Below, in pieces: positions 12,720 through 32,293 of a DNA stretch of 50,462 bases. Both the position numbers and the translations under genes were made by a program. Position 1 is the stretch's first letter. Every line of letters begins with the position of its first letter. Under the pieces are notes generated by a model, which saw nothing but the letters and a program-made list of their open reading frames with translations, did no database searches and was not told the origin of the DNA. Source of the DNA: an uncultured Candidatus Saccharibacteria bacterium (lineage in GTDB: Bacteria; Patescibacteriota; Saccharimonadia; Saccharimonadales; Saccharimonadaceae); the NCBI GenBank assembly GCA_964610655.1, contig CAZSYG010000001.1, positions 1 to 50,462 on the forward strand, in the 5' to 3' direction.

Positions 12720-12741
12720 AATAACTTTTAACTTATAATTC

Positions 12742-12779
12742 AAAAAAACAAGGTCGGAATTGACTTCCGCCTTGTTTTT
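12742..12779. terminator. Bidirectional terminator-like hairpin after dnaK, homologous to the hairpin at 31727-31762
   Basis: AAAAACAAGG-T-CGGAA-TTGAC-TTCCG-CCTTGTTTTT. Confidence 0.75.
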
Positions 12780-12792
12780 AATCCCAAACTAT

Positions 12793-13197
12793 AAAAAAAT
12801 CGGGGGGAGAGGGGAACCGAGCTGGAACCCTCTCTCCGGCCAACAGGACTACTACCGAGCCACGCAGCGAACCGCGCGACCGTTGCCCTTACTGTTGTTG
12901 TTCTGTGGGTTGATGTTCGTAGAGTTGAAGTTCAAGTTGCGAGCGTTCGTAGGCGACGAAGCATACGAGGACCAGAAGTTGCCGTTGTTGCCGCGGTTGT
13001 TGAGGCCGCCATTAGGATAATTGTAGTTGCCGCTTCTTATAACTGGAACGAACTATTCCCACAAGGAATCGCTTTATTAACTTTACTTTCGTAAAAGTAA
13101 AACACCCTGACCTTTTAAAAAGGGTATTCCTCGATTTTTATCATTCTACTCCTAGAGATAGCGCCTCTCCCAGCAACGATTTTCTAAAAGTAGATGC
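12793..13197 (-). ncRNA. Putative stand-alone DGR template RNA, cassette 1
   Basis: Minus-strand TATAAT at 13209-13204; structured leader; AAC-rich template repeat; 3' GC hairpin and U-run; near-identical second copy 19,022 bp away. Confidence 0.8.
12852..13040 (-). repeat. DGR template repeat TR1
   Basis: Reads IRSGNYNYPNGGLNNRGNNGNFWSSYASSPTNARNLNFNSTNINPQNNNSKGNGRAVRCVAR*; 18 of 62 codons are AAY; in-frame stop 4 codons upstream and no start codon. Confidence 0.85.
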
Positions 13198-13226
13198 AAC
13201 TATATTATATAATAATCTCCCGCTCT

Positions 13227-14288
13227 CTAAAATTTTACCCGTTTTAGATGTTCTTTCGCTTTCAAAGTTACCATTCTTCCCCTTGGCGTCCTCTCTAACA
13301 TTCCGAGCTGTAATAAGTATGGTTCATAATAATCCTCAATCGTCGAGGGTTCATCTCCCGTCAGCGCCGCAATCGTCGTTAGCCCAACCGGTCTATCTCC
13401 ATAATTCTCCAACATCAACTCCAACATATTTCTATCCGCCGGATCCAACCCCAGCTCATCCACTTCCATCATCATCAGCGCCTCTTCTGCGGTTTTCCTA
13501 TCAACAATCCCGTCTCCGTTGACATCTGCATAATCCCGCACTCGTTTAAACAACCTGTTCGCAATTCGCGGCGTCAACCGCGAGCGTGTCGATAGTAGCG
13601 CCGTCGCTTCTGGCGAAATCTCCGTCTTTAAAATCCCCGCCGTCCGCGTAATAATTTTCTGAATCTCCCCCTCTTTATAATACTCAAGCCGATGAATTAT
13701 CCCGAACCTATCTCTTAGCGGCCCCGCCAGCGCTCCCGTTCGTGTCGTCGCTCCAATCACCGTAAATTTCGGTAAATCTAGCCGAACCGACCGCGCCGCC
13801 GGCCCTTTCCCGATGACGATGTCGAGTTTATAATCTTCCATCGCCGAATATAAAATCTCCTCAACCGTTCGCCTCAACCGATGAATCTCGTCAATAAATA
13901 AAACGTCCCCCGATTGTAAATTCGTCAAAATCGACGCCAAATCCCCCGCCCGCTCAATCGCCGGCCCCGACGTCACCCTTAAATTCGCCCCAATCTCATG
14001 CGCAATCACGTTCGCCATCGTCGTTTTCCCCAACCCTGGCGGGCCATACAACAAAACATGGTCAAGCGCCGACCCATCGTTGCGTTTTTTCACGGCGTCA
14101 ATCGCGAGTTTAAGATTCGTTTTTAGCCGCTCCTGTCCGATATAAGAAGAAAAATCCGTCGGCCTGAGCGAAACCTCAATTTCCCGTTCTTCCGAGTTCG
14201 ATTCATTCAACTCCGAATCAACCAACCTCTCTTTTTTCGCGGAAAAAACCTCTCCTGTCTCCTCGTTAAAACTCCTCTTGATACTCAT
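13227..14288 (-). CDS. ruvB: Holliday junction helicase RuvB
   Basis: [37 protein letters not shown]; start chosen at MSIKR. Confidence 0.97.
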
Positions 14289-14406
14289 TCTGTCTAAAAT
14301 TATACCATAAATTCTTGTCATTTTCCCTCCGCGCTCCAATCACGCCTCGACCCCTGTAAAATGCGTAAAAATGCCTTTAAACTTGTCCGGAAAATTCCGC
14401 CCATGC

Positions 14407-14433
14407 TTGCAATCGGGGGGGGGGTGCTAAAAT
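14407..14433 (+). promoter_or_regulatory. Putative promoter with a G10 tract in its spacer
   Basis: TTGCAA-TC-G10-TGC-TAAAAT upstream of the ClpP-like gene. Confidence 0.55.
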
Positions 14434-14488
14434 TTTAGCTAGCCGGGGCTATAGCTAGCCTATCCCGACGAACTTTTCTAGAAAAGGA

Positions 14489-15145
14489 GTGAGAAAAATG
14501 GCGACGGATTTCCTCGCGAAAATCCCGAATAATCTCCGTGTTAGCTGCGATATCTACGAATATCTCGGCTACCAAGACGTCCTCGACCGCCGTCTCTATC
14601 TGAGCGGCGCGATTTCCTACGACAACGACGCTTTCTCCGACCCCGACGTGATGTCGCCCGAGGACATCGTTCAGTATATCCTCCAGTTCAACCGCGAGGA
14701 TAAGGAGCTCAAGCCCGAAGAGCGGAAGCCCATCCGCCTTTACATCAATTCCCCGGGCGGCGACATCGAACAGGGTTTCCCCATCGTCAGCGCGATTCAG
14801 CTCAGCCGCACCCCCGTCTATACCATCAACGTCGGCGAATGGGCGTCGATGGCTTTCCTGATTGGGATTACCGGCCACCGCCGCTTCTCCCTGCCCTATA
14901 TGCAGTTCTTGATGCACGACGGCTCGAACTTCATTCTCGGTTCCACCGGTAAGGTTCAGGATCAAGCGGACTTCAACAAGCGCTTCGAAAAAGAAGTCGT
15001 CAAGCGCCACGTTCTCTCCCACAGCAAGATTTCCGAAAAGGAATATGACAAGCGTTTCCGCGAAGAGTGGTATATGCTCCCCGAAGACGCCCTCGAAAAG
15101 GGTTTCATCGACCACGTCGTTACCTCCCTCGACGAAATCTTCTAA
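14489..15145 (+). CDS. ClpP-family (S14) protease subunit, divergent
   Basis: [15 protein letters not shown] (Ser), FLMHD (His), [10 protein letters not shown]; AAGGAG upstream, so the start may be ATG 14498. Confidence 0.85.
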
Positions 15146-15150
15146 CTCCT

Positions 15151-15176
15151 ATGCCCCGCTTCTGCGGGGTATTTTT
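15151..15176 (+). terminator. Intrinsic terminator
   Basis: ATGCCCCGC-TTCT-GCGGGGTAT followed by a T-run. Confidence 0.75.
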
Positions 15177-15204
15177 ATGCTATAATAATAAAAAAGGAGT
15201 TTTT

Positions 15205-15747
15205 ATGGAATTAAAGAAAAACAGTAAAACTTGGAAAAATCTCGAATTCGCTTTCGCTGGCGAGTCTCAGGCTTTCACGAAATATAACTATTTCGCCTCT
15301 CAGGCTAAAAAAGATGGCTACGAACAAATCGCCGACATCTTCCTCGAAACCGCCGGCAACGAAAAGGAACATGCCAAGATGTGGTATAAATATCTTAACG
15401 GCGGCAAAGTCGGCTCGACGAAGGAGAATCTAACCGCCGCGATTAACGGCGAGAATGCCGAATGGACAGACATGTATAAACGCTTCGCTGAGGAAGCTCG
15501 CGAAGAGGGTTATGAAGAAATCGCGAAAAAATTCGAGGGCGTCGCGAATGTCGAAAAGGAACATGAAGCTCGCTATCTAAAGCTCCGCGATAATATCGAA
15601 AGCGACGTTGTCTTTAAATCCGATAAAGTTACGATTTGGAAATGCCGTAACTGTGGCGCGATTTATGTCGGCGAAGAAGCGCCGGAACTCTGTCCGGTTT
15701 GCGCCCACCCTCGCTCCTATTTCGAAATAAAAGCGAATAACTACTAA
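15205..15747 (+). CDS. rbr: Rubrerythrin
   Basis: [21 protein letters not shown]-terminal CRNCG...CPVCAHP; AAGGAG before ATG 15205. Confidence 0.95.
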
Positions 15748-15753
15748 AACCCC

Positions 15754-15776
15754 GCCCGCCGAGGCGGGCTTTTTCT
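15754..15776 (+). terminator. Intrinsic terminator
   Basis: GCCCGCC-GA-GGCGGGC followed by TTTTT. Confidence 0.65.
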
Positions 15777-15807
15777 TATCTTGAATTTATGATATAATTA
15801 TCTCAAT

Positions 15808-16509
15808 ATGTCAGGACATTCAAAATGGGCAACGACTAAACGTCAGAAAGCCGTCGTTGACGCGAAACGCGGCGCCCTCTTTACTAAAATCGGCAATCAA
15901 ATTGCCATCGCCGCTCGCGCCGGTACTGACCCCAATATGAACCCTAGCCTCGCGATGGTGCTCGAAAAAGCCCGCCTCGCGAATATGCCAAAAGCGAATA
16001 TCGAACGCGCAATCGCTCGCGTCGCTGATAAATCCGCCGCTACTTTAATCGAAGAAACCTACGAAGCCTACGGCCCAGGCGGAACCGGAATTATTATCGA
16101 AGTTGCGACCGATAACAAAAACCGCACGATGCCCGAAGTTCGCCATACCCTCGATAAAAACGGCGGTCGAATGGCGGAGCCGGGTTCCGTTATGTTCCAA
16201 TTCTCCCGAAAAGGCGTTATTTTTACCCCCGATAAATCCGAAGACAATCTCCTCCTCGCCCTCGACGCTGGCGCCGAAGATGCTGAAGAAGTCGAAGACG
16301 GTCTCGAAATCATCACTTCCGCCTCCGACTTAATGAAAATCCGCGCCGACCTAATCGAAAAGGGAATCAACGTCGAATCCGCCGAGCTAAAATATCTCCC
16401 GACCTCGACCGTCCCTGTTGAGGGCGAAACCGCCGAAAAGCTCGAAAAACTCCTCGACGCGATTGACGACCTCGACGATGTAACCGCTGTTCATACTAAC
16501 GCCGAATAA
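15808..16509 (+). CDS. yebC: YebC/PmpR family protein
   Basis: MSGHSKW, NMPKANIERAI, YEAYGPGG, TDNKNRT, DLDDV. Confidence 0.95.
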   Translation: MSGHSKWATTKRQKAVVDAKRGALFTKIGNQIAIAARAGTDPNMNPSLAMVLEKARLANMPKANIERAIARVADKSAATLIEETYEAYGPGGTGIIIEVATDNKNRTMPEVRHTLDKNGGRMAEPGSVMFQFSRKGVIFTPDKSEDNLLLALDAGAEDAEEVEDGLEIITSASDLMKIRADLIEKGINVESAELKYLPTSTVPVEGETAEKLEKLLDAIDDLDDVTAVHTNAE

Positions 16510-16527
16510 AATAAAAAAGGAGGTAAA

Positions 16528-17106
16528 ATGAAAACTTCTCTCGCCCGCATCCGCCACGCTCGCAGCAAACAGGAGTTTCCCTTTCTCCCTCTCGAAGAGG
16601 GCGAATATGTCGAGCTTTCGATTGAACGCTCGAAGCTCGGCCTCGTCCTAATTTGGGGTGGTAGCCTCGTTGCGATTCTCGGAATCCTCGCTCTCGGCGT
16701 AACTATCTCTAGCTCGCTCTCCACTAAACTCGGCTCCGTTCCAGCTTCGGCGATGCCCTACTTCTATCTCCTAATCATCTCTTTAGTTCTCGTTGTTATC
16801 GTTGCTTGCCTCGTTGGCTCAAAGGTCTATAAAGATAACCATCTCTACATCACCAACAACCGCGTCTTTGAATATGGAACCTCTAGCCTCTTTTCCCGCT
16901 CGACCAACATCATCGAGCTTTACCGAATCGAAGATGTCTCCTTTAAACAATCCGGTATTTTCGACTATCTTTTCCACATCGGAACTATCCGCATGTCGAC
17001 CGTCGGCGACGAAACGACCTATACTTTCCCCTTTGTCGATACTCCGACCGACGAAGTCAATTTCATCGCCCATCTCATCCATCTCGCGAAAGACCGCCGC
17101 GGCTAA
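16528..17106 (+). CDS. Membrane protein with a bacterial PH domain
   Basis: Two TMs followed by YITNNRV...LYRIEDVSFKQSGIFDYLFHIGTI. Confidence 0.75.
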   Translation: MKTSLARIRHARSKQEFPFLPLEEGEYVELSIERSKLGLVLIWGGSLVAILGILALGVTISSSLSTKLGSVPASAMPYFYLLIISLVLVVIVACLVGSKVYKDNHLYITNNRVFEYGTSSLFSRSTNIIELYRIEDVSFKQSGIFDYLFHIGTIRMSTVGDETTYTFPFVDTPTDEVNFIAHLIHLAKDRRG

Positions 17107-17122
17107 ACCTCTCGATTTTCTC

Positions 17123-17151
17123 TTGACAAAACACCCCGCTTATGCTAAAAT
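17123..17151 (+). promoter_or_regulatory. Near-consensus sigma70 promoter with no sense gene downstream
   Basis: TTGACA-17 nt-TAAAAT with an extended -10 TG. Confidence 0.6.
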
Positions 17152-17183
17152 AGACTCAACGACTCCCCGAAGCCGATTTTTTC

Positions 17184-17573
17184 CTAGTTTCGGTTTTTCT
17201 TGATATAATCGTCTTCTTTCTCTAATTCCGCCCTTAAAGTATATTCTTTACATAACCCATCTTTACAATTCGTCGCCTCATAAGAGTACGAACTAAAATC
17301 TGTTCCAATATAAAACCCCAGCGGGTCGGTAAATAACGCCGGATCTATGATGGTTAAAATCTTCTCAGAAATCTCCTCCGGATAGCCATTTTTCGCCGGA
17401 TAATACCCCTCTTCTAACGCATAATACATCGCGTTTATCGCGGCCTTCCTCTTTTCGTCTCTGTTCATCGCGTCTACATTTGACTTTTGCACAAAAAACA
17501 ATATCAGCGCCAATCCAGCGAACGCCCCCACAATAATAATTTCTAAAACCGTAAATCCGCGTTTATTTTTCAT
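17184..17573 (-). CDS. Type IV pilin-like protein
   Basis: MKNKRG|FTVLEIIIV prepilin cleavage motif and a C-terminal Cys pair; the longer ORF-track call runs into the tRNA. Confidence 0.88.
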   Translation of the reverse strand: MKNKRGFTVLEIIIVGAFAGLALILFFVQKSNVDAMNRDEKRKAAINAMYYALEEGYYPAKNGYPEEISEKILTIIDPALFTDPLGFYIGTDFSSYSYEATNCKDGLCKEYTLRAELEKEDDYIKKNRN

Positions 17574-17580
17574 AATTTTC

Positions 17581-17666
17581 TGGCGGAAGGGACAAGATTC
17601 GAACTTGCGAGGCGTTAACCTGCCGGTTTTCAAGACCGGTGCCTTAAACCACTCGGCCACCCTTCC
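17581..17666 (-). tRNA. tRNA-Ser(TGA)
   Basis: GGAAGGGTGGCCGAGTGGTTTAAGGCA-CCGGT-CTTGAAA-ACCGG, variable arm, GTTCGAATC, ...CCTTCCGCCA. Confidence 0.95.
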
Positions 17667-17723
17667 GCTCCTTATTTTACCATATCTCCCATCTCGTGTC
17701 GATAAGCCTAAACTCGGCTCTCT

Positions 17724-18059
17724 CTACTCTTTCTCGCTCCACCCTGCCGCTTTCAACGATTCCCAAGTCTCTTCTTCGCTCATCTCCTCACTCTCGCTCG
17801 CAAAAACCGCATCAACATCCGCGTCCGTCACTCCGTCTTGCCCTCTCGACTCCGAAGTTTCCTCCGTTCCCGAGCTCTCTTCTGTCCCTGAATTTCCTCC
17901 TGTCTCCGAATCCCCTCCCCCTATCTCTTCGCTCCCCCCAAACCAACTAATCTCCCCGCCCTGTCCATTCCAAATCTTCACAAAAAGTACCCCAATCCCC
18001 ACCAACACCACGACCATCACCCCAATTCCAATCTTTAAAGCTAGACTTCCTTTTTTCAT
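17724..18059 (-). CDS. Small membrane-anchored acidic protein
   Basis: N-terminal TM and a G/S/E-rich tail; GAGGAG upstream. Confidence 0.6.
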   Translation of the reverse strand: MKKGSLALKIGIGVMVVVLVGIGVLFVKIWNGQGGEISWFGGSEEIGGGDSETGGNSGTEESSGTEETSESRGQDGVTDADVDAVFASESEEMSEEETWESLKAAGWSEKE

Positions 18060-18067
18060 TTCTCCTC

Positions 18068-18727
18068 CTAACTCTTCCTAAATGTATAAAAATATACGTT
18101 TCTTTTCGCGGCATCTCTCAATGTTTTCCAACTTATCGCTTTTCCACAATACGTACTATCATTCCCGCAATGCGTCGGCGACGAAACTTGAACCGTCCCA
18201 TTCGACTTTGCCGCGTAAATTACCAAATATCTATCTCCATCTCCCTCAAACGGCTTATTCCCTTGCGCTCGCATAATTATCACATATCCACTTTTCAGCC
18301 CACTCGCTATCTTTTTCCAAACCGAATCTGAATTTCCGCTCATCCCAACAACGTCATACCCATATTCCGCCATGATGTCCCAAATAAAATTACGCGGCAT
18401 ACTACCTGATAGATATGCGCTCTTCCCACTTCCCGCAACCGAAGTCCAAATCCCCCAGTTATACGCCGCTTTCGCGACAGTCGACGGGGTAACAGAAAGT
18501 TTATATCGAATCCTCAGCGCCGCCGCGACCGCCGCAATCGACGTCCCATTAAAACACGCTACTCCCCTATATCCATGTCCTCCAGTATCACAAATCCCGA
18601 AATGTCCATTTTTCGTCCCCCAATATCTTGACTTCCACGCAAACGCGTTTTCACTTCGCGCAATCGACCCAACAATCGCCATCACCCCCACCAAGGCTAC
18701 TATGGTTACTTTTTTAAACTTAATCAT
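18068..18727 (-). CDS. Secreted protein, C39 peptidase-like fold (degenerate)
   Basis: Signal peptide ending AFA; ACFNGTSIAAV...VTP, LKSGYVII, YLVIY, VQVSSP spaced like C39-like motifs. Confidence 0.55.
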   Translation of the reverse strand: MIKFKKVTIVALVGVMAIVGSIARSENAFAWKSRYWGTKNGHFGICDTGGHGYRGVACFNGTSIAAVAAALRIRYKLSVTPSTVAKAAYNWGIWTSVAGSGKSAYLSGSMPRNFIWDIMAEYGYDVVGMSGNSDSVWKKIASGLKSGYVIIMRAQGNKPFEGDGDRYLVIYAAKSNGTVQVSSPTHCGNDSTYCGKAISWKTLRDAAKRNVYFYTFRKS

Positions 18728-18786
18728 AATAAAATTATATCATACTTCCTTAAAAACTCCCATTTTTTGTTATAATTAAGCTAAAG

Positions 18787-19518
18787 ATGTCTATTTTCAA
18801 AAAAAATCTCTCGAAAAAAACGAAACTAACCCTTGCTCTCGTCTTTTTTGTTATTTTTCTTCTGACTTTTTATATTATCTGGGACATCAAAACCTCTGGC
18901 CCGCTCACCTCATTCATGACCGACCGCGAAGCCCTTGTCGAAACTGTCGAATCCGTCGGAATTTTCGGCCCCCTCGCCTACATCTTGCTCCAAATCCTCC
19001 AAACCGTCCTCGCCCCGATTCCGGGTGGCGTCATCTCCCCCATCGGCGGCTTTCTCTTTGGCTGGCTCGGCGTTCTCTGGACTTCGATTGGCGCGACCCT
19101 TGGCGCATGGATAGTTTTTTACATTTCCAAAAGATACGGTCGTCGCCTTGTCGAAAAAATCGTCAAAAAAGAAGCCGTCGATAAATTCGATTTTATCCTC
19201 GGTCGTCGCGCCGCTTTGATTCTTTTTCTTCTCTTTTTAATCCCTGGACTCCCCGACGACACAATTTGCTACGTCGGTGGTTTAACGAAAGTCCCCATAA
19301 AAACCCTCCTAGTCATCTTTTTCGTCGGTCGTCTCCCCGCCGTTGTCGTGAATAACTATTTCGGCATGGGATTCAACGAAGGGAACTACCTCGCTCTTGG
19401 AATCTGCACCGCTCTCAGCATCGTCCTGCTCGCCTTTATCTATTGGAAACAAGATTGGATTATCTCCTCTCTGAAGCCTCTAAATAACTCTGAGCCTCCT
19501 AAACCCCCGAAAAAATAG
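18787..19518 (+). CDS. TVP38/TMEM64 (DedA/VTT) family membrane protein
   Basis: LQTVLAPIPG, GFLFG, LFLIPGLPDD..CYVGGLT. Confidence 0.88.
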   Translation: MSIFKKNLSKKTKLTLALVFFVIFLLTFYIIWDIKTSGPLTSFMTDREALVETVESVGIFGPLAYILLQILQTVLAPIPGGVISPIGGFLFGWLGVLWTSIGATLGAWIVFYISKRYGRRLVEKIVKKEAVDKFDFILGRRAALILFLLFLIPGLPDDTICYVGGLTKVPIKTLLVIFFVGRLPAVVVNNYFGMGFNEGNYLALGICTALSIVLLAFIYWKQDWIISSLKPLNNSEPPKPPKK

Positions 19519-19621
19519 CCCCTCTCCTCCTCTCCCTCTTGATTTTTTCTCGATTCTGTGATATAATATAAAGAGGTTTATTTTTGCACCTTTAGAATCA
19601 GTATCAAAGGAGGTAATTTTC

Positions 19622-20179
19622 GTGAGAAAAGTCCTGACCAGAGAAATCGTCGAATCGAAACTCGAAAAGTTTTACGGCGATTTGGAAACCGCGAAGCAAC
19701 AGGTCTTCCGGCTCAACGTTGACTCCATGCGTGGTTTCAACGAAATCGGCAGCTCCGCTTTCAGGGGGTTCGGCAGATTGACCGAGGTAATCATCCCCGA
19801 AGGAATCGAGAAAATCGGCGATTACGCTTTCGCTGAGTGTCCTCGGCTGAAGTTTGTCAAGCTCCCCTCGACTCTCAAGGAAATCGGTGAGCGCGCCTTC
19901 TACCGCTGTCTCCCGCTGTGCGGCGTCGAGTTTCCGGCGGGTCTGGAAAAAATCGGCGACCGCGCGTTTGCCTATACCGACTTCCGCTCCCTCCCCGATC
20001 TCCCCGACAGTTTCCTGAAGAGTCGCAGTCCCTACCTCGAATTTATCTTCAGAAACACTCCCGCCATGATCGAAAACGACTCCAAATTCCTCGCCAAGGT
20101 CTGCCACTGGAACCATTCCCACCATCGTTACTCCCGTCTCCTCAGCTTCGTCCGCCCCATCCGTTCGGCCCATTCCTAA
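19622..20179 (+). CDS. BspA-type leucine-rich repeat (LRR_5) protein
   Basis: Repeats IGSSAF, IPEGIEKIGDYAF, LPSTLKEIGERAF, FPAGLEKIGDRAF; AGGAGG then GTG. Confidence 0.85.
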   Translation: MRKVLTREIVESKLEKFYGDLETAKQQVFRLNVDSMRGFNEIGSSAFRGFGRLTEVIIPEGIEKIGDYAFAECPRLKFVKLPSTLKEIGERAFYRCLPLCGVEFPAGLEKIGDRAFAYTDFRSLPDLPDSFLKSRSPYLEFIFRNTPAMIENDSKFLAKVCHWNHSHHRYSRLLSFVRPIRSAHS

Positions 20180-20191
20180 ATGATACTGACC

Positions 20192-20226
20192 AAAAACCTC
20201 CCCGTAAAAGGGGAGGCTATTTTTTT
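20192..20226. terminator. Bidirectional terminator between the LRR gene and rny
   Basis: AAAAA-CCTCCCC-GTAAAA-GGGGAGG followed by a T-run. Confidence 0.7.
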
Positions 20227-21742
20227 ATTTCGCGTATTCTATCGCTCTTGTCTCTCGAATGACGTTAACCTTGATTACCCCCGGATAGCTCATCGTCGCT
20301 TCGATTTTATTCGCAATATCTCGCGCCAGCTTCAACGCCGTTAAATCATCAATCTGTTTCGGCTCAACAATCACTCTAATCTCTCGCCCCGCGGAAATCG
20401 CATAGGCTTTCTCAATCCCGTTAAAGCTCGTCGCAATATTCTCTAAATCGCGCATTCTTTCCGCGAAGTTCTCCGCCGAAATATTTCTCGCCCCCGGACG
20501 CGCCGCGGAAATCGCGTCGCAGATTTTAACAATAATCGCTTCTGAAGTCGTCGGCTCAATATCATCATGATGTGCCGCCATCGCGTGAACTACCGCGTCG
20601 TTCATACCATATTTCTTCGCCAACTCCGCCCCAATCTCCGCGTGTTTCCCCTCGATTTTATGGGTGACTGCTTTTCCAATATCGTGCAGCAACGTCGCCG
20701 TCTTCGCGACTCGCTTGTCCGCCCCAATCTCTTCCGCGATCATCCCCGCCATATGCGCCATCTCTACGCTATGCAAAAGCACATTCTGTCCATAACTTGT
20801 CCTAAATTTCAACTCCCCCAATAAATGCAACAACTCTCTCGGAATCCCGACCACTCCGACTTCCCTCGCCGCGTCTTCTCCTGCGCGAACGACCTCTTTC
20901 TCAATCTCTCGCTCGGCTTTCGCGACCGACTCCTCGATTGATGCTGGATTTATTCTTCCGTCTTTCATCAACCTCTCTAGCGCGTATCTCGCGACTTGTC
21001 GCCTGATCGGGTCAAAGCTCGACAAAACCACCATCCCCGGCGTATCATCAACCATAATATCTACCCCCGTCGCCCTCTGTAACGCCTGAATGTTTCGCCC
21101 CTCTTTCCCAATAATCCTCCCCTTCATCTCATCATCCGGCAACTTCAACGCCGTAATTGTCCTGTCCGCCGTAACTTCGCTCGACATCCTCTCCATCGCC
21201 GTCAACAAAATCGCCTGCGCCGTCTCGTCAATATCGTGTTTAATCTCTTTCTGTTCTTTCGCGACTAGCCCAACCAAATCCTGTTTGATGTCGTTCTCGG
21301 TCATCATCATCAACTTCTCGCGCGCCTCTTGCTTTGAAAGTCCCGCGATTTTTTCTAGTTTTTCGTGTTGTTTAACTCGAATTTCGCGAATTTCCCCCTT
21401 GAGTTCTTCTAGCTCTTTTTCTTGTTTAGCGACGCGCTCAGTTTTTTTCTCAATCTGGTCGAGTTTCCTATCGAGCGTCGTTTCTCGTTCGGCTAACCTG
21501 TTTTCTGTCCTTTTCCACTCTTTCCTGCGTTCATTTTCTTCCGCCTGCGTCTTTTCGGAAACTTCCGCGGCTTGCTTTTTTGCCTCTAAGACAATATCAC
21601 TCGCCTCGCGCTTCGCCTTGCGGACTAAATCTTCCGCCTTGTCTTTTCCGCCCTTTTCGTTCTTTTTATTGTAAGCTATTACTCCCCCTCCCCCGACCCC
21701 AATTCCAACGATTGCGGCAACAACTAAAACTAAAATGTTCAT
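20225..21742 (-). CDS. rny: Ribonuclease Y
   Basis: N-terminal TM, coiled coil, KH domain (KGRIIGKEGRNI), HD domain (LLHDIGK), ISAARPGAR. Confidence 0.97.
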   Translation of the reverse strand: MNILVLVVAAIVGIGVGGGGVIAYNKKNEKGGKDKAEDLVRKAKREASDIVLEAKKQAAEVSEKTQAEENERRKEWKRTENRLAERETTLDRKLDQIEKKTERVAKQEKELEELKGEIREIRVKQHEKLEKIAGLSKQEAREKLMMMTENDIKQDLVGLVAKEQKEIKHDIDETAQAILLTAMERMSSEVTADRTITALKLPDDEMKGRIIGKEGRNIQALQRATGVDIMVDDTPGMVVLSSFDPIRRQVARYALERLMKDGRINPASIEESVAKAEREIEKEVVRAGEDAAREVGVVGIPRELLHLLGELKFRTSYGQNVLLHSVEMAHMAGMIAEEIGADKRVAKTATLLHDIGKAVTHKIEGKHAEIGAELAKKYGMNDAVVHAMAAHHDDIEPTTSEAIIVKICDAISAARPGARNISAENFAERMRDLENIATSFNGIEKAYAISAGREIRVIVEPKQIDDLTALKLARDIANKIEATMSYPGVIKVNVIRETRAIEYAK

Positions 21743-21831
21743 AAATCGTCTTTCTGTTTAATAAAATATATAAAATTTAATAAAAATCGTATAAAACGTA
21801 TCTAAATTATATCACAATTCTAAAATTACTG

Positions 21832-22182: not shown

Positions 22183-22205
22183 ATACTTCTATTTTAGCAT
22201 AAAAA

Positions 22206-22966: not shown

Positions 22967-22986
22967 ACATATAATTATACCACATT

Positions 22987-23013: not shown

Positions 23014-23031
23014 TTATATATAATAATATAT

Positions 23032-24146: not shown

Positions 24147-24257
24147 TTTTTAGAACTTTCTTCTCCTATGTTTACTAAATTTCCTTAATTTTACTTGAAA
24201 AACTTAAAATTTCAACCCCCTTGACTATTTACCTTAACCGTGATATAATAAGAGCAT

Positions 24258-24767: not shown

Positions 24768-24794
24768 CCCTATGGGGGATTAAAGGAGAAAATT

Positions 24795-25703
24795 ATGAAT
24801 CTAGCTATTCTCTCTAACGGTAACGCCAACTACTCGACCAAGCGCCTCGTCGAAGAGGCGGAAAAACGCGGTCATAAAGTTAAGGTTGTTAAATATAAAA
24901 ATTGTTATATCTCTCTCGACCAAAAACATCCTGACATCTATTATAAGGGAAAGAAACTTGAAGGTTTTGATGCAATTCTCCCCCGAATCTCTAATAACAT
25001 GACTCGTTACGGTTGCGCTATCGTCCGCCAGTTCGAGATGCAAGGCGTCTGGACTTCCGCGAACTCCGTTTCGATTACTCGCGCCCGCGATAAACTCCGC
25101 GCCGCCCAGATTTTAACGAAATATGGCGTCGATACCCCGAAGACTCTCGTTTCGCGCAACACCGCTGACATCGACGATTTGATTGAACAAATCGGTCTCC
25201 CCGTTATCATTAAGCTCGCGACCGGAACCCATGGCAACGGTGTCATTCTCGCCGATACGAAAAAAGCCGCGAAATCCGCGCTTCAGGCTTTCTACCTCTA
25301 CAACGAAGACGGGACAAACATCCTCCTTCAAGAATACATCAAAGAATCCGCCGGAACTGACATCCGTGCCTTTGTCGTCGGTAGTCGCGTCGTCGCCTCA
25401 ATGCAACGTGCCTCGCTCGACGATGATTTTCGCTCCAACCTTCATCAAGGCGGCGCTGGAACCCCGATTAAACTAACCGACGAAGAAAAGAAAGTTGCCC
25501 TAAAAGCCGCGAAAGCGATGAATCTTCATGTCTGTGGTGTCGACTTAATGCGCTCAAGCCGCGGCCCGCTCGTCCTCGAAGTAAACGCTTCCCCTGGTTT
25601 CGGAATCGAAAAAGTAACCGGAAAGAACGTCGGCGGAAAGATTATCGAATATATTGAACATAACGCCCCGCGTAAAAACTCTAAAGACCGCGTCGGTGCT
25701 TAA
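24795..25703 (+). CDS. rimK: RimK family ATP-grasp ligase
   Basis: YSTKRL, RARDKLR, GTHGNGV, DFRSNLHQGG, EVNASPG. Confidence 0.93.
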   Translation: MNLAILSNGNANYSTKRLVEEAEKRGHKVKVVKYKNCYISLDQKHPDIYYKGKKLEGFDAILPRISNNMTRYGCAIVRQFEMQGVWTSANSVSITRARDKLRAAQILTKYGVDTPKTLVSRNTADIDDLIEQIGLPVIIKLATGTHGNGVILADTKKAAKSALQAFYLYNEDGTNILLQEYIKESAGTDIRAFVVGSRVVASMQRASLDDDFRSNLHQGGAGTPIKLTDEEKKVALKAAKAMNLHVCGVDLMRSSRGPLVLEVNASPGFGIEKVTGKNVGGKIIEYIEHNAPRKNSKDRVGA

Positions 25704-27198
25704 AAGAATCCATCAATCCTCGCTCTTCCTCTCTTTCGTTCTCGGAATTATTTTTGGCACGATTTTCTCGGTTATCTTCCGAATCAACTTTTTCTCCTCC
25801 GCTCTTTGGCTCATTTTCGTCCTCATCTTACTCACATATAGTTTCTTTAATCCCGCTCGCCTCTTTTTGATTCTTATTTTTCTTGCCGGCGGTATTTTAG
25901 CGAATTTTCGCGTCTCGCTTTTTCTAAAAGACGAAGACCCCGTAAAAAACTTAGTTGGCGAATCTCTCGAACTAACCGGTAGAATTTCTGCCGACCCTAG
26001 TCTCTCCGGCGCGAACACAGTTCTAAAATTAACCGACCTAACTTTCTCTTCGTCTAGCTCCGAATTTTCCGAAAAACCTTTAAAATCTCTAATTTATGTC
26101 CAAACTTACGTCCCGAAATCCGAAACCTTAAAGCGCGGTTATTTTATAACCCTAAAAGGAAAATTGACCAACGGCTTCGGCGCTTATTCCGCCTCTCTTT
26201 TTCGCCCCGAGCTCTTAAAAATCTCTCGCCCCTCTGGCGAAACTTTAATCGACTTCCGCGACGCGTTCGCCGACTCCATAAAATCTAACCTCTCCGCCGA
26301 CGAATCTAGCCTCGGTCTCGCCTATCTCCTCGGTCTCCGCAATGGACTTTCCGAAGAACTCGTCGAAATCCTCGCCGCCGTCGGACTTACCCATCTCGTC
26401 GTCGCCTCCGGCACCCACCTCTCCATCCTTATCGAACTGATTAAAAAATTATTCGGTCGCCTTTCCCGTTTTTCCGGTTTTCTCTTTTCGATTTTATTCA
26501 TCTTACTCTTCGCCGAGTTAATTGGTTGGACTGCCTCGATTACTCGCGCCTGTATCGTTTCGCTTCTCTCCCTTTCCGCTTGGTATTCCGGTAGAAAACT
26601 CTCCCCGCTCCGAATCATTTTAATTTCTATGAGCCTAACGCTCCTTCTTGACCCCATGAACTTAACTAACCTCGGTTGGCTCCTATCGTTCGCTAGTTTC
26701 TCCGGAATTTTAATCCTCGCGCCGGCCTTAACTAAATTTTTCTACGAGAAAAAACCAAAATTCCTCTCCGAGATTTTTCTTGCTACTCTCTCCGCGACTT
26801 TAATGACCGCCCCGATTTTACTTTATTATTTCGGTAGTCTCTCGCTCATCTCTCTCCTCGCGAATCTTTTAATCCTCCCAACAGTTTCTCTCGCCATGGG
26901 CTTTACTTTCCTAACTGGAATTTTCGGGCTTCTTCCTGCCTCTAGTTTTCTCGGCGCGCTTCTCTCCCCGCTCAAATTCATCGTTGTAAAAATTACAACA
27001 TTCATCTTGGATTACCATCTCCTCATCATGCGCTTTTTCGGCTCCGAAAAGGTATTTTTAATCACTCTTTCGCCGAACAACCCGCTCGTTTTTCTTCTTT
27101 ATCTCCCGCTCCTGCTTCCGTTCCTCATTCTAGGTCTTAAAAAGTATTTTCATCAAAAATCTCTCCCTTGCCCGACTCCGCGTTATTTTGTCTCTTAG
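25696..27198 (+). CDS. comEC: ComEC/Rec2 competence protein (no beta-lactamase domain)
   Basis: GLTHLVVASGTHL, ASITRA, GWLLSF, ANLL; GTG start assumed. Confidence 0.88.
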   Translation: MLKRIHQSSLFLSFVLGIIFGTIFSVIFRINFFSSALWLIFVLILLTYSFFNPARLFLILIFLAGGILANFRVSLFLKDEDPVKNLVGESLELTGRISADPSLSGANTVLKLTDLTFSSSSSEFSEKPLKSLIYVQTYVPKSETLKRGYFITLKGKLTNGFGAYSASLFRPELLKISRPSGETLIDFRDAFADSIKSNLSADESSLGLAYLLGLRNGLSEELVEILAAVGLTHLVVASGTHLSILIELIKKLFGRLSRFSGFLFSILFILLFAELIGWTASITRACIVSLLSLSAWYSGRKLSPLRIILISMSLTLLLDPMNLTNLGWLLSFASFSGILILAPALTKFFYEKKPKFLSEIFLATLSATLMTAPILLYYFGSLSLISLLANLLILPTVSLAMGFTFLTGIFGLLPASSFLGALLSPLKFIVVKITTFILDYHLLIMRFFGSEKVFLITLSPNNPLVFLLYLPLLLPFLILGLKKYFHQKSLPCPTPRYFVS

Positions 27199-27276
27199 TT
27201 TAGTCGAAAAAACCTCTTTTAAAACCGAAATTTTCTTGTTATGATAGTCTTAGATTATTTAAGAGGTAATATTTAT

Positions 27277-28326
27277 ATGACGACGAAAAAACCGATGGAA
27301 AAAAATGATAAATCCGAATCTAACGCGCGTGCCGATGGAAAGGCTCAGGCTCTAAATCTCGCCATCGCCCAAATTACCAAACAATTCGGCGACGGTTCAA
27401 TCATGAAACTTGGCGACACCAAAAAAATCGACGTCGCTCTTCTTCCTTCCGGCTCTCTTTCGCTCGACCTCGCTCTTGGTGGCGGTTACCCAAGAGGTCG
27501 TATTATCGAAATCTACGGCCCCGAATCTTCCGGAAAAACGACTTTAACTCTCCATGCTATCGCCGAGATGCAAAAATCCGGTGGAACTGCCGCCTTTATC
27601 GACGCGGAGCATGCTCTCGATCCCGCCTACGCGAAACGCATTGGCGTCGATACGAAAAACCTCCTCATCTCCCAGCCCGACAATGGCGAACAGGCTCTCG
27701 AAATCTGTGAAACCCTCGTCCGCTCTGGCGCTGTCGATTTAATCGTTGTTGACTCCGTCGCCGCTCTCGTCCCCCAAGCGGAAATTGACGGCGATATGGG
27801 CGACTCCCAAATGGGTCTCCAAGCCCGCCTGATGTCTCAGGCGATGCGTAAACTAACCGGCATCATCTCGAAATCGAAAGCGACCGTAATTTTCATCAAC
27901 CAAATCCGTATGAAAATCGGTGTCATGTTCGGGAATCCCGAAACAACGACCGGCGGTAACGCTCTAAAATTCTATGCTTCCGTCCGCCTCGACATCCGCC
28001 GCATCGGCCAAATCAAAGACGGCGACAACATCGCCGGCAACCGAACGAAAGTCAAGGTCGTTAAAAATAAAATCGCCGCTCCGTTCCGAACTGCCGAGTT
28101 CGACATTATGTATAACGAAGGAATCTCGAAAGTCGGCGACGTTCTCGACCTCGGTGTCCAATTCGGCATCATCGAAAAAGCCGGCGCATTTCTAAAATAT
28201 AATGGCGAAACCTTGGGCCAAGGCCGCGAAAACGTGAAAAAACTTTTCCGCGAAAAACCGGAACTTATGAAAGAAATCGAAACCAAAGTTCGCGAAAAAG
28301 CCAAAGCCGCGTCCGAAGAAAACTAA
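27277..28326 (+). CDS. recA: RecA
   Basis: [38 protein letters not shown]. Confidence 0.99.
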
Positions 28327-29001
28327 ATGGGGAAAATTACCGCCCTAAAACCCGCCATAAAAACCGAAAATCGCGTCAATGTTTTTCTTGACCATGAATT
28401 TTCTTTTTCGCTCGACCTTACCCAAGTCGTCGACTTTAGCTTAAAAGTCGGAAAAATTTTAACGCCTGCCGAAATCGAAAAACTAAAACGCGCTTCGATT
28501 TTTGGAAAACTTTATACTTCGACGCTCGAATGGGTTTTAACTCGTCCACACTCGACTAAAGAAACTCGCGACTATCTTCATCGTAAACTTTTTCGCCGCG
28601 CTACACTCAACAAAAAACGCGAGCGCGAAAATCTTTCTCCGTTTGAACTTTTTTCTGAAGAAGATATCGAAAGCGTAATCAAAAAACTAACCGAAAAAAA
28701 TTATCTGAACGATGAAAAATTCGCGAAGTTCTATGTCGAAAATCGTAATTTTAAAAAAGGAATTTCCGCACGCCGCCTTCGCGAAGAGTTAGGAAAAAAG
28801 GGAATCGCTCCCGAAATTATCAATCTCGTTCTCGAAACTTCTGCGCGTAATCAGGAAACAGAAATTGAAAAAGTCATCGAGAAAAAAGGCAAAAAATACA
28901 ACTCTCCCGAAAAACTACTCGCCTATCTCCTCCGCCAAGGTTTTCCCTACGACCTCGCAAAATCTAAAGTTAGCGAACTAAATCTTCCGCCCGCGCTTTA
29001 A
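28327..29001 (+). CDS. recX: RecX
   Basis: Immediately after recA; RPHS..E, YLNDEKFA, YLLRQGF. Confidence 0.88.
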   Translation: MGKITALKPAIKTENRVNVFLDHEFSFSLDLTQVVDFSLKVGKILTPAEIEKLKRASIFGKLYTSTLEWVLTRPHSTKETRDYLHRKLFRRATLNKKRERENLSPFELFSEEDIESVIKKLTEKNYLNDEKFAKFYVENRNFKKGISARRLREELGKKGIAPEIINLVLETSARNQETEIEKVIEKKGKKYNSPEKLLAYLLRQGFPYDLAKSKVSELNLPPAL

Positions 29002-29473
29002 TTTTTTCGTTAAAAATTTCGGTTATTTTTTCCGAAACCATGTTCGCCTGAATTTTTATTTCGTTATATTTTTCCGCGATTTCATTATTGTCTTCGCTCG
29101 TTTTATAAAATTCCAAAAACTCCGCGAATTTATTTTTAAAATTTTCTAACTCAACTTTAACTTTCTCAGCTTTAGTTTCGTTAATTAAACTTTCTAATTT
29201 TCCGATATAATTATTAAACCCTTCTTCGTCCGCTTCTTCCGGAATTTCGTTTAAATTTTCCGAAACTAATTTTAAAAATTCCGTTTTTTCTAAAACCGCC
29301 GCGCTAAGAGCCGTTAATTTTTCTTCGGTTTCAGTTTTAAAACTTTCTCGTCCGTCCTCGACACCTTGATGATAAATAAATTTAGTTCCATAAAACCCGC
29401 CAACAATTAAAACAACCAACAATAAAACTATAATAATTATTTTTCCGTTTTCTTTTTTCTCGTGCTTTTTCAT
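28970..29473 (-). CDS. Membrane-anchored helical hypothetical protein
   Basis: N-terminal TM; GGAGG upstream. Confidence 0.65.
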   Translation of the reverse strand: MKKHEKKENGKIIIIVLLLVVLIVGGFYGTKFIYHQGVEDGRESFKTETEEKLTALSAAVLEKTEFLKLVSENLNEIPEEADEEGFNNYIGKLESLINETKAEKVKVELENFKNKFAEFLEFYKTSEDNNEIAEKYNEIKIQANMVSEKITEIFNEKIKARAEDLVR

Positions 29474-29483
29474 TTTTCCTCCT

Positions 29484-30146
29484 TTATCTTAATGTCCAAA
29501 GTTCAGAATCCAGCGGCCAAGCATTAAACGAGTCGCACCCTCTCAGTCCCGTTGATTGCTGAAGCATTATCGGCGCCGGTCCGCCGTTTTCGCAACTCGT
29601 TTCGTGATTATAATGTCCGAGCCAATGCCCGACTTCGTGATTAACAACCATGTGTTGATAATCTCGCTGACCCATTCCCGCGCTTCGACTCGCCTCCGTC
29701 CCCTCGCGCCACCTTTCGTCGTTAATGATTACTTCATTATTCCACGTCGTGCAAGATAAATCTCCCGAACATCCTGCCGTCGCGTCGAGCGACGCCGCGT
29801 CTGAAAGAATAATGTTTAAATCTTGCCCCGATTTAACTTCAACAAATTTTAATCCCGCCCGTTTCCATCCTCTCGCGTCGTTTAGTGTCTCGCTAACCTT
29901 TCCTTTAAAATCGGAAAAATCTGCCACGACCGTCCCCCAAGTCAGTGTCTTATAATAAATCACTTTTTCGCCGTTAACCTCGTGCGCCTTCGCCGTCCCC
30001 GTCGAAAGCGTGTTCGTCCCGTTTGGATTCTGCGCGACCGAAACTTTTACTAAAATTTTTTCCTTAAATCTTTCCGGAACCGGAATCGAAACGACTTCGC
30101 TCGTTGCCTCAGCGATAAAACTTTGCGCGTCTATATTAAAAATCAT
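29484..30146 (-). CDS. DUF3152-like zinc metalloprotease
   Basis: LNDARGW, INDERW, NHEVGHWLGH, APIMLQQS. Confidence 0.8.
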   Translation of the reverse strand: MIFNIDAQSFIAEATSEVVSIPVPERFKEKILVKVSVAQNPNGTNTLSTGTAKAHEVNGEKVIYYKTLTWGTVVADFSDFKGKVSETLNDARGWKRAGLKFVEVKSGQDLNIILSDAASLDATAGCSGDLSCTTWNNEVIINDERWREGTEASRSAGMGQRDYQHMVVNHEVGHWLGHYNHETSCENGGPAPIMLQQSTGLRGCDSFNAWPLDSELWTLR

Positions 30147-30168
30147 ACTTTTATTATATAATGAAATT

Positions 30169-30765
30169 ATGCTAATGAGTGGACTAAACCTACTTAACTT
30201 TCCAGTTTTAAGTCTTCATGTCGGTGGCCCTATCGCGAAAACTTCTCGCGCCGTTATCGACCCAGATACCCTTAAAATCATCGCCTACGAAGTCCTCCCG
30301 ACCAATCTTCTCGACGAAGAAGCCGGCAACATTCTCGAAACTCGTGATATTCGCGAATTTGCGAATATCGGAATGATTGTTGACTCTAGTGACACCTTTG
30401 TCGATCGCGGCGATGTTATAAAACTTGATAAAATCCTCGATTTAAACTTTGACTTAATCGGCCTCAAGGTTGAAACAAAAAAGGGAACTAAACTCGGAAA
30501 GGTAATCGACTATACCGTTAATACCGACAATTTCTCCATCCCTCAATTCATCGTTAAGCGTCCTGCGATGAAATCGCTAATTGACCCCGAACTCGTTATC
30601 TCCCGAAAAGAAATTGTCGAAGTGACCGACTACAAAATCATCGTTAAAGACGAAGAAGAAAAAATAAAGCAACGCGCCCTAAAAGAAGATTTTATCCCGA
30701 ACTTTGTCAATCCTTTCCGCGAGCCCGACTTCTCCGCCTCACGTTTCAAACACGAAAAAGACTAA
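30169..30765 (+). CDS. PRC-barrel domain protein
   Basis: LIGLKVETKKGTKLGKVIDY; TATAAT 6 nt before the ATG. Confidence 0.75.
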   Translation: MLMSGLNLLNFPVLSLHVGGPIAKTSRAVIDPDTLKIIAYEVLPTNLLDEEAGNILETRDIREFANIGMIVDSSDTFVDRGDVIKLDKILDLNFDLIGLKVETKKGTKLGKVIDYTVNTDNFSIPQFIVKRPAMKSLIDPELVISRKEIVEVTDYKIIVKDEEEKIKQRALKEDFIPNFVNPFREPDFSASRFKHEKD

Positions 30766-31653
30766 TTATAATCTAAATTCATTTTTGTTGAGTTTAACTA
30801 ACTTATCTTCTGGTAAGTTAAACTTTTTTCCGCTCCGATAAGTTTTAATCGCGTTCAGAAAATCCATTAGTTGCGGTCGCGTGGCGGAAATGTTGGCTCT
30901 TATGGTTATGTAGCGTAAAAACTCAAGACTTGACTTTTCGTCGAGACTATGGAACCAATTTCGTTCATAAACTCGATTTTCCGGCAAAATACTTTCTAAA
31001 ATTTTTTCAACTTCTCGTTTAATTTCTTTTTCTTGAACCCAAAGTTGAAAAACTTGACCTTTAGTTTTAAAATCTAGACTTCGTGTTTTTTCGCGGAGTC
31101 GATTACGCAGATAATCGTCCGAAGAGTTCGTCGGGTCTTCTCGAAAAACAATTTTTTTCTCCGCCGCGTATTTTAAAATTGCTTTTTTATCAAAAAGTTT
31201 AAATCCAAATTCTTCTGGGCTAAAAAATCCATCAATCAACGGTCGTCGAATCCCGAAGCTAGAAAAAGACGCGAGCCCTCGCCAACCCGTCCCGCGTAAA
31301 AAATTTATCGCAATCGTTTCGATTAAATCGTCTAAATGGTGCGCCGTAAAAATTTCCCCGCGTTCTTTAAATGCAACTTCGCGCAAAAATTTATAACGCT
31401 CCTCCCGCGCTTTTTCTTCCGAAACTCCTGCGCCCAATTTCGCTTCACCATAATAACTTTTAATCCCGTTTTCTTTCGCTTTTTTCAGAACAAATTCCGC
31501 ATCTGTCTTCGCGCTCTCCCGCGTTCCGTGATTAAACGTTGCGACGACTAGCTCATCTCGCTTAATTTTTCCCGCCAAAACTTCGCCCAACATCATATCG
31601 AGCATCACCATCGAATCCATCCCCCCGCTCACTGCTAAAACTTTTTTCACCAT
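30766..31653 (-). CDS. tilS: tRNA(Ile)-lysidine synthase
   Basis: AVSGGMDS, NHGTR, AREERY, TAHHLDD, RPL, EDPTN, RNRLR. Confidence 0.95.
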   Translation of the reverse strand: MVKKVLAVSGGMDSMVMLDMMLGEVLAGKIKRDELVVATFNHGTRESAKTDAEFVLKKAKENGIKSYYGEAKLGAGVSEEKAREERYKFLREVAFKERGEIFTAHHLDDLIETIAINFLRGTGWRGLASFSSFGIRRPLIDGFFSPEEFGFKLFDKKAILKYAAEKKIVFREDPTNSSDDYLRNRLREKTRSLDFKTKGQVFQLWVQEKEIKREVEKILESILPENRVYERNWFHSLDEKSSLEFLRYITIRANISATRPQLMDFLNAIKTYRSGKKFNLPEDKLVKLNKNEFRL

Positions 31654-31677
31654 ATATTATATATATTATTATAAATT

Positions 31678-31740
31678 ATAATCCAAAATCAAAATCCGCC
31701 CCACTATAATTTTTGACTCATAATCCAAAATCAAAATCCG
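31678..31740 (+). repeat. 21-bp direct repeat ATAATCCAAAATCAAAATCCG
   Basis: Exact copies at 31678-31698 and 31720-31740. Confidence 0.85.
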
Positions 31741-31816
31741 AATTCACTTCGGTTTTGATTTTAATCCTAAAGTTCTTTCGTTGGGACTTTCTTTCTAAGA
31801 AAGTCCCAGACTCTTT

Positions 31817-32229
31817 AAAAATCGGGGGGAGAGGGGAACCGAGCGGGAACCCTCTCTCCGGCCAACAGGACTACTACCGAGCCACGCAGCGAACCGCGAA
31901 CCCGTTGCCCTTGTTGTTGTTGTTCTGTGGGTTGAGGTTTCTGCCGTTGAAGTTCAAGTTGCGAGCGTTCGTTGTGGATGAAGCATACGAGGACCAGAAG
32001 TTGCCGTTGCTGCCGCGATTGTTGAGGCCGCCATTATTGAAGTTGTAGTTGCCGCTTCTTATCTCGCGACAGGGTAGAGCCCAAGGAACATCTTTACTAA
32101 TATTTTTCTCGTAAGATAAATATAGATATGGTCTTTATTTCTTAAAAGAGTGTTCCGCGATTTTTATCATTCTACCTTTAGAGTTAGCGTTCTCTCACCG
32201 GATTAAAACGATTTTCCAAAAGTAGATGC
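31817..32229 (-). ncRNA. Putative stand-alone DGR template RNA, cassette 2
   Basis: Minus-strand TATAAT at 32241-32236; same leader stems, template repeat and 3' hairpin as cassette 1. Confidence 0.8.
31874..32062 (-). repeat. DGR template repeat TR2
   Basis: Reads IRSGNYNFNNGGLNNRGSNGNFWSSYASSTTNARNLNFNGRNLNPQNNNNKGNGFAVRCVAR*; 19 of 62 codons are AAY; no ATG/GTG/TTG between it and the upstream in-frame TAA. Confidence 0.85.
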
Positions 32230-32293
32230 ATATATATTATAACTCTACTCGTCTCCCTTTTTAAACCTCTGTTTTTATGCTATAATATATATT

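Follow-up and report, generated by a model that had tools for sequence, protein, structure and literature searches.

A 50,462-nucleotide stretch of DNA from an uncultured Candidatus Saccharibacteria bacterium (hereafter the window, meaning the whole stretch that was analysed) was found to carry two template repeats (TRs) of a diversity-generating retroelement (DGR), each standing apart from the reverse transcriptase (RT) with which a TR usually shares one cassette. We regard this split architecture, with its two free-standing templates and silent copies of the variable repeat (VR), as genuine, and the reading that we favor and consider probable is that of a distributed DGR, in which both templates are used in trans by an RT and an Avd-like protein encoded on another contig, C44, and act on one surface target of the Fib_succ_major type. 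The window is contig C1 of genome G000 (721 kb in 58 contigs, rated 98% complete), the sequencing runs that hold DNA of this genome are animal gut metagenomes, and the window ends nearest to the two TRs, which are contig ends, lie 12.8 and 18.2 kb away. Hereafter, G144 denotes the genome of a sister species (90% complete), other G numbers denote genomes of the genus, and C numbers denote contigs.

The two templates, TR-A (12852-13040) and TR-B (31874-32062), lie within a pair of repeats, 12795-13040 and 31817-32062, that align without gaps at an offset of 19,022 with 23 mismatches in 246 nt. This geometry, which an earlier note on this DNA had described from the sequence alone, was reproduced exactly, and the pair is the sole long direct repeat of the window (the next longest among the matches listed is 54 nt). 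Each copy sits alone in an intergenic gap, as the note had said, between dnaK and ruvB and between tilS and lepA, respectively, and all four flanking genes scored above the NCBIfam cut-offs. On the minus strand both copies read as the start-less, AAC-rich frames that had been claimed, with AAY codons at 18 and 19 of 60 positions and an end in VRCVAR-stop; they are the only minus-strand frames of the window that end in a VRCV-type motif, and profile and sequence searches of the window returned no RT or Avd-like match, again in agreement with the note. The leader upstream of both TRs is conserved as well (13209-13113 versus 32241-32139, 79% over 103 nt).

Each template pairs with its own VR elsewhere in the genome. 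TR-A differed from positions 5-220 of C28 (VR28) by 13 mismatches in 208 nt, all 13 of which fell at TR adenines (P about 1e-8), and TR-B differed from positions 7145-7384 of C16 (VR16) by 19 mismatches in 240 nt, 18 of them at TR adenines (P about 4e-11), with the sole non-adenine mismatch falling in the 3' loop. Within the coding part, both VRs showed zero non-adenine drift. The cross pairs were far worse, with 19 of 38 mismatches at adenines for TR-A against VR16 and 19 of 33 for TR-B against VR28. In the sister species, TR-B compared with its VRs gave 15 of 17 and 26 of 34 mismatches at adenines, in comparison windows that include flank. The earlier note had suggested looking for 3' ends that differ from the TRs almost only at adenines, which is what these pairs display; together with the conserved leaders, such cognate, adenine-specific VRs rule out that the repeats are broken 3' ends of ordinary genes. 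Two further candidates were rejected by the same comparison: the template of a second DGR on C43 (TR43) as the source of VR28 and VR16 (77 and 74 mismatches, mostly not at adenines), and a 1,222-residue FISUMP gene on C15 as the current target (66-93 mismatches to the three TRs).

The expectation that the targets would be remote surface genes held in part: remote VRs do match the templates, but both assembled VRs lie in start-less 3' fragments and not in genes, and their frames matched Fib_succ_major/FISUMP below the cut-off. The C28 copy is a start-less tail of ~400 nt that begins directly beside the promoter region of a neighboring gene, which we take to be rmuC, and the C16 copy, also start-less, lies between a protein gene, presumably fmt, and a tRNA. 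The identical 93-nt arm that VR28 and VR16 carry upstream of the TR homology is part of a full-length gene on C35; this gene stays open for 899 codons up to the contig end and has a 55-nt overlap with the C28 fragment. This C35 gene is the only full-length matching gene visible, and it runs into an assembly gap, with its own VR unassembled. Contig ends of C11, C13, C27, and C44 enter or leave the same repeat, decayed remnants of which occur on C3 (38 nt) and C2 (59 nt), and the simplest copy count in G000 is four, namely, one gene and three start-less tails. The stem-loop and C-rich tract of the TR 3' tail are also present in the VR copies on C16, C27, C44, and C2, and those on C16, C27, and C44 are without the 3' arm of the duplex that is predicted to close the template RNA (see below). 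Because G050 and G106 carry the C35 genes (parA, parB, relA, rnhA, CYTH) directly upstream of an Avd-RT-murA arrangement, we infer from this synteny that the C35 gene joins C44 just before its Avd and RT genes. As a separate observation, the other two FISUMP genes of the genome (G000:C15:250-760 and G000:C21:11850-12400) have a non-coding leader of ~100 nt in common, with inverted repeats and no Rfam match.

G000 holds two RVT_1 matches above the cut-off, on C44 and C43. C44 reads, in order, a 3' tail of the TR-A/TR-B type (as in the window TRs and VR16), a 294-residue gene, a 380-residue RT (RT44), and a helix-turn-helix gene with murA, and it has no TR. RT44 has a YVDD motif, its best PDB match is bRT of the Bordetella phage BPP-1 (E 2e-23, compared with 1e-4 for a group II maturase), and its closest titled relatives are from Saccharibacteria. 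Sequence searches gave no match for the 294-residue protein and did not identify it as Avd. Its residues 177-294, predicted as a four-helix domain (predicted local distance difference test score 89), superpose on Avd of 4DWL and 8UB7 over 106-118 residues with Z 14.8-15.1, a root mean square deviation of 1.8-2.8 Å, and a template modeling score of 0.83-0.87 by target, at a Foldseek E of only about 0.01. On this predicted model, the protein is structurally Avd-like and a candidate Avd partner (Avd44). The reading frames of RT44 and Avd44 are both intact. Thus, a distant RT and Avd of the DGR clade, which the earlier note had named as support for its distributed DGR, exist without a TR of their own, and with the remote cognate VRs they bear out that proposal. 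Its postulate of a single remote RT fared less well: a remote RT exists, but the genome has two DGR RTs, and the one on C43 belongs to a complete element with target, Avd-like gene (Avd43), RT (RT43), and inverted TR, in which template and VR differ at 16 positions, all adenines, within the homologous stretch. Because of this second enzyme, service by one RT remains inferred. Across the genus, the Avd-like proteins (such as those at L001:198-1079, from G000:C44, and L002:2298-3140, from G000:C43) are 250-300 residues long and have a well-predicted alpha/beta domain at about residues 60-150, before the Avd fold, that gave no match in fold searches, which barely covered it. A subgroup of the RTs, moreover, matches RT44 in two pieces within one frame (G078:C5, G036:C31, G037:C6, G023:C22, G057:C2, G102:C3, G069, G120:C22, G148:C35, and G035:C16), which implies an insertion near residue 178.

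Remote templates are the exception in the genus. DGR-type RTs occurred in 91 of 151 genomes, and an AAC-rich TR lay within 1.5 kb at 28 of the 34 RT loci examined; of the six loci without a nearby TR, three belong to the murA-linked type, contig ends cut through two more, and the last is unclear. A close match to Avd44 was present in 10 of 369 genomes, seven of which have the Avd-RT-murA arrangement, and among these seven the TR was on another contig in four (G000, G050, G173, and G345); G030 has it linked, and in G106 and G151, whose assemblies are both incomplete, no TR was found (G151 appears to be G165). G050, the genome for which the absence of other RTs was checked, has one RT match and one TR on another contig, so that its RT44 orthologue is the only candidate enzyme found there. 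In the RT tree, the murA-linked RTs fall in one supported group with three TR-linked RTs, and the order of TR moves cannot be read from it because the group is unresolved inside. Three loci of the genus stood out on inspection. At G359:C44:1623-4304 (L207), Avd stands next to the helix-turn-helix gene and murA with no RT between, which suggests RT loss. G078:C63:1-5619 (L123) has at least seven different AAC-rich, TR-like units in tandem, in most of which a promoter-like site, a leader, and a 3' tail recur, and is possibly a multi-template library. In G173:C4 (L210:520-760), a TR cassette with intact leader and tail and a deleted template core lies between a VR and an intact TR.

The two window cassettes have the features of RNA genes, and independent transcription of each is predicted from promoter, terminator, and RNA-structure signals. 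Their parts and flanking genes are as follows.

12852-13040, minus strand: TR-A, 63 codons including the stop, 53 adenines; cognate VR at G000:C28:5-220
13041-13198, minus strand: structured 5' leader of the predicted TR-A RNA (from folding and covariation), with the closing-duplex 5' arm at 13139-13132, a covarying helix of 13131-13126 with 13069-13064, and a 5' hairpin
13204-13231, minus strand: promoter-like site of cassette A, -35/-10, 10 of 12 consensus matches (consensus match only)
12795-12851, minus strand: TR-A 3' tail, with stem-loop, C-rich tract, and closing-duplex 3' arm at 12802-12795
12740-12780, no strand assigned: bidirectional terminator-like hairpin between cassette A and dnaK, stem at 12755-12769
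31874-32062, minus strand: TR-B, 63 codons including the stop, 57 adenines; cognate VR at G000:C16:7145-7384
32063-32230, minus strand: structured 5' leader of the predicted TR-B RNA, closing-duplex arm at 32166-32158
32236-32265, minus strand: promoter-like site of cassette B, divergent from lepA (consensus match only)
31816-31873, minus strand: TR-B 3' tail, with stem-loop, C-rich tract, and closing-duplex 3' arm
31738-31806, no strand assigned: extra hairpin and bidirectional terminator-like hairpin between cassette B and tilS, terminator stem at 31738-31752
10842-12719, plus strand: dnaK, flank of cassette A
13227-14339, minus strand: ruvB, flank of cassette A
30766-31653, minus strand: tilS, flank of cassette B
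32294-34075, plus strand: lepA, flank of cassette B

For cassette A, the promoter-like scan found 2 sites, compared with 0.7 ± 0.7 in shuffles. Both cassettes have the same predicted fold, with a 5' hairpin, an 8-9-bp closing duplex between leader and 3' end, a second leader helix, and a 3' stem-loop before the C-rich tract, and they are likely, on these signals, to be separately transcribed RNAs of ~400 nt. Between G000 and G144, the closing duplex shows one double change from A-U to G-C. The leader helix, aligned over eight cassettes of six genomes, was paired in 94.6% of cells and showed two-sided change in four of seven pairs, while slid controls were all lower (41-61% paired); because the sequences are related and the helix was picked by eye, this covariation is support and not proof. 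Tested across the genus, the closing duplex gained little support: 35 of 81 rows (duplicates included) contained the C-tract, and the median was 8 bp versus 6.3 bp in controls. The distal duplex and downstream stem-loop that characterize DGR template RNAs are thus present by prediction, partly covarying, in few independent lineages. Rfam returned three tRNAs only for the window, with nothing near the gathering threshold over the cassettes, and a scan of JGI metagenomes with the leader motif gave one match, which was unrelated.

Both cassettes were retained in the sister species. Of 150 genus genomes, cassette and leader were matched only in G144, which has them at the same two sites, ruvB/dnaK and lepA/tilS. 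There are 14 species-specific positions that both paralogs carry, which argues for homogenization of the paralogs within each species, and seven differences between A and B are kept in both species. TR-A and TR-B differ at 14 codons, at two of which the reachable residues are disjoint, and the theoretical reach of each template is about 1e29 protein sequences. The copy at the rmuC site is of the A type in G000 but of the B type in G144, a switch that fits either template reaching any copy. Between TR-A and its orthologue in G144, 37 of 187 positions differ, and yet the VRs of each species track their own TRs, which argues that rewriting went on after the species split.

Start-less VR copies numbered at least three in G000, 36 examined in G050, 20 in G173, and about 20 in G030, with copy number ranging erratically across genomes from about 3 to about 40; as in silent-cassette systems, the variable part of a single gene is present in many incomplete cassettes. 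In G050, where the single TR had 42 DNA matches (itself counted), a filter of at most 20 non-adenine changes kept 32 of the 36 copies and dropped four. These copies have a 5' arm from the gene, mostly of ~40 nt, and each has its own adenine pattern (a median of 26 of 52 sites differ pairwise). No stop occurred in the 62 codons of the 32 copies, compared with 3.8 (from private changes, P 0.017) to 13 (from all changes) expected, and one copy has a stop just beyond that 62-codon window. G173 likewise had no stops in 20 copies, with 4.0-12.5 expected, and has two 3-nt deletions; the copies of G173 and G030 were collected by protein searches and anchors, an approach that favors intact frames. All four indels noted in the G050 and G173 copies are multiples of three. 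Copies with the C-rich tail had no non-adenine change (3 of 3 in G050 and 3 of 3 in G173), and tail-less copies drift (median of 9 in G050), although some tail-less copies have just 0-1 such changes (G030, VR28) and are read as recent. The copies have uniform 5' arms and sharp ends, and three of their sites are common to G000 and G144. Since the arms are not adenine-mutated (changes at 4 of 216 A sites versus 49 of 828 others in G050, and at 5 of 100 versus 30 of 500 in G173), the cassettes were rejected as RT copies of target mRNA and appear to be made at the DNA level. DNA-level exchange does occur, because the non-TR arms are homogenized within species. On contig C7 of G050 (G050:C7:15500-29000, L115), ~15 cassettes in both orientations lie within 10 kb, several of them flanked by inverted pieces of the upstream arm, a hint at inversion or site-directed recombination.

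In the mechanism that we propose, the TR-A and TR-B RNAs would be transcribed separately from the RT and copied in trans by the distant C44 RT and Avd, which would thereby rewrite the tip of a Fib_succ_major (C-type-lectin-like) surface protein. The duplex of 5' and 3' ends, with the 3' stem-loop, may load the RNA on the RT-Avd complex, by analogy with the BPP-1 RNA. Either template could write the same target, given that the TRs and targets share one 3' end. TR-A and TR-B would fix different residues at two codons, which adenine mutagenesis cannot interconvert, and would open different positions, so that the cell may hold two alternative libraries for one binding site. The expressed target would be the C35 gene (about 1,000 residues), directly upstream of Avd and RT, and the start-less copies would be DNA-level copies of mutagenized tails, kept in step with the gene.

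Several observations weigh against the distributed DGR served by C44. RT43 is intact and 61% identical to RT44, and it is therefore a second candidate enzyme; that it serves the window TRs, alone or with RT44, is nonetheless unlikely. TR43 does have a similar C-rich tail and a 12-bp closing duplex, but RT43 has its own adjacent TR and target, the TR43 leader is unlike the A and B leaders, the tail upstream of Avd44 is the TR-A/TR-B tail, and in G050 the sole enzyme is of the RT44 type and the TR is remote. No RT was found in the G144 assembly (90% complete), Avd-RT-murA systems evidently decay, as at the G359 locus, and the variation seen within samples is ambiguous: contigs of four runs from two studies differ from the VR16 site at 2-23 positions, none spans it, and all 13 of the differences listed within VR16 carry the letter of TR-B and possibly stem from TR contigs, so that within-population hypervariability is not cleanly seen. 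These points would suit cassettes that are inactive relics of a once linked DGR, with VRs as its frozen products. We judge this quite improbable, since the VRs of each species follow their own TRs despite the TR-A divergence, the coding parts of VR28 and VR16 are free of non-adenine drift, the leaders covary, and both RT44 and Avd44 are intact. The fragmentation of G000 also counts against the favored reading, because the VR of the C35 gene is unassembled and a third TR may lie in the C35-C44 gap. With contigs that break at repeats and none that spans the whole C16 site, the start-less copies might even be binning and assembly artefacts and the targets several full-length genes; we think this very improbable. 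In the sister species, which was assembled independently, start-less copies occupy the rmuC and tRNA-Gln/valS sites as well; at the C16 copy, contigs of two studies extend from the presumed fmt into the repeat by 30 and 37 letters; and dozens of start-less copies lie inside long contigs of G050 and G173.

What the start-less copies do is the more evenly balanced question. That they also serve as donors into the expressed gene has, in our estimate, slightly less than an even chance, and the same holds for the explanation in which the distributed DGR is real and the copies are functionless by-products of ectopic recombination or repair, passively homogenized. The donor role is weakened by private missense changes that are near neutral (ratio about 1.0), by shared segments that are rare (2 of 496 pairs in G050 and 1 of 91 in G173), and by G030, where stop depletion is not significant and 1 of 16 copies has a stop; the erratic copy number and the remnants on C3 and C2 likewise suit by-products. 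The complete lack of stops in G050 and G173, the indels in multiples of three, the uniform arms with sharp ends, and the three sites shared by G000 and G144 speak against mere by-products. Purifying selection on missense changes of the cassettes was unsupported after recurrent changes were removed, and segmental shuffling among cassettes found little support; with shared segments so rare, the copies look like whole snapshots and not vls-like mosaics. Tentatively, and with less confidence than we attach to a donor role, the distributed DGR might be a two-tier system with memory. In it, a fixed Avd-RT at murA would serve a small family of template RNAs, each an alternative scaffold for one surface protein, and entire mutagenized tails would be stored in a dispersed archive of up to ~40 stop-free silent cassettes, open to recall into the expressed gene by recombination.

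In the BPP-1 DGR, the TR RNA is part of the avd-TR-brt transcript. The system described here resembles that DGR (PDB 8UB7 and 4DWL; mtd VR, avd, TR, brt) in its DGR-type RT, Avd-fold partner, AAY-rich TR, adenine-specific mismatches between TR and VR, C-type-lectin-like C-terminal target, and predicted upstream-downstream duplex and downstream stem-loop around the TR. It differs in that the two TRs are separate units tens of kb from the RT, the Avd has 294 residues with an extra N-terminal alpha/beta domain instead of about 110-120 in the solved chains, and the 3' tail is identical behind TR and VR. Both RNA elements, the distal duplex and the stem-loop downstream, are predicted in bioRxiv 10.1101/2023.10.23.563531 for 207 of 278 DGRs that carry an Avd. 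DGRs of the candidate phyla radiation with an opposite-strand TR (architecture B3 in the available text of PMC5758913) are alike in having a TR transcribed apart from avd-RT, and this linked, opposite-strand form is the norm in the genus and present on C43; every architecture in that text is a cassette with its own order of TR, RT, and accessory genes, whereas here the TR lies outside, duplicated and diverged. The same text has avd, TR, and brt working in trans, with TR and RT on opposite strands and plasmid supply in trans; a cassette shared by TR and RT, though usual, is not a requirement of the mechanism. Remote targets are on record, as far as the accessible portions of the sources go, for Treponema denticola, Trichodesmium, Nostoc, and DUSEL4 Nanoarchaeota (PMC5758913, PMC4891356, PMC8867640, PMC7517822, PMC4372165), and PMC8632793 covers them too. 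Those systems, too, reach VRs distant from the RT in trans. Their single TR, however, is linked and acts on full-length genes elsewhere, whereas here the templates are remote and most VR copies lack a start codon and a gene body.

Silent-cassette variation is also known from Neisseria pilS and Treponema tprK. Borrelia vls/vlsE (PMC11499132 and PMC2632889, in the parts available) is similar in its one expression site, many incomplete near-identical cassettes, and conserved flanks; the cassettes here differ in that they carry the DGR adenine signature, are dispersed or in short arrays, and rarely mix by segment. In the literature searched, outside Paul et al. 2017 and survey supplements, we found no description of chromosomal templates remote from the RT or of DGR-made silent cassettes, and a term search of the available part of bioRxiv 10.1101/2024.11.15.621889 returned none of the relevant terms. 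Remote targets being already known, what appears new is the remote, duplicated templates and the link from DGRs to silent cassettes.

Elsewhere in the window, a likely mobile island at 35064-44408 carries two serine recombinases (41481-43076 and 43080-44408), a 1,401-residue WD40-repeat protein (37109-41314), an AAA_25 ATPase (36014-36976), and a 54-nt repeat at 36994 and 41391.

Since detection generally needs repeats next to the RT, DGRs with remote templates have likely been missed or filed as broken; the method of PMC8144416, by the available part of that paper, misses remote targets. If the proposed reading is true, natural DGR template RNAs would act as modular guides, each with its own promoter, and several of them would serve one RT and one target, which would bear directly on programmable hypermutation tools. 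It would also offer a testable route to surface-protein variation in an ultra-small epibiont and might connect DGRs with antigenic variation by silent cassettes.

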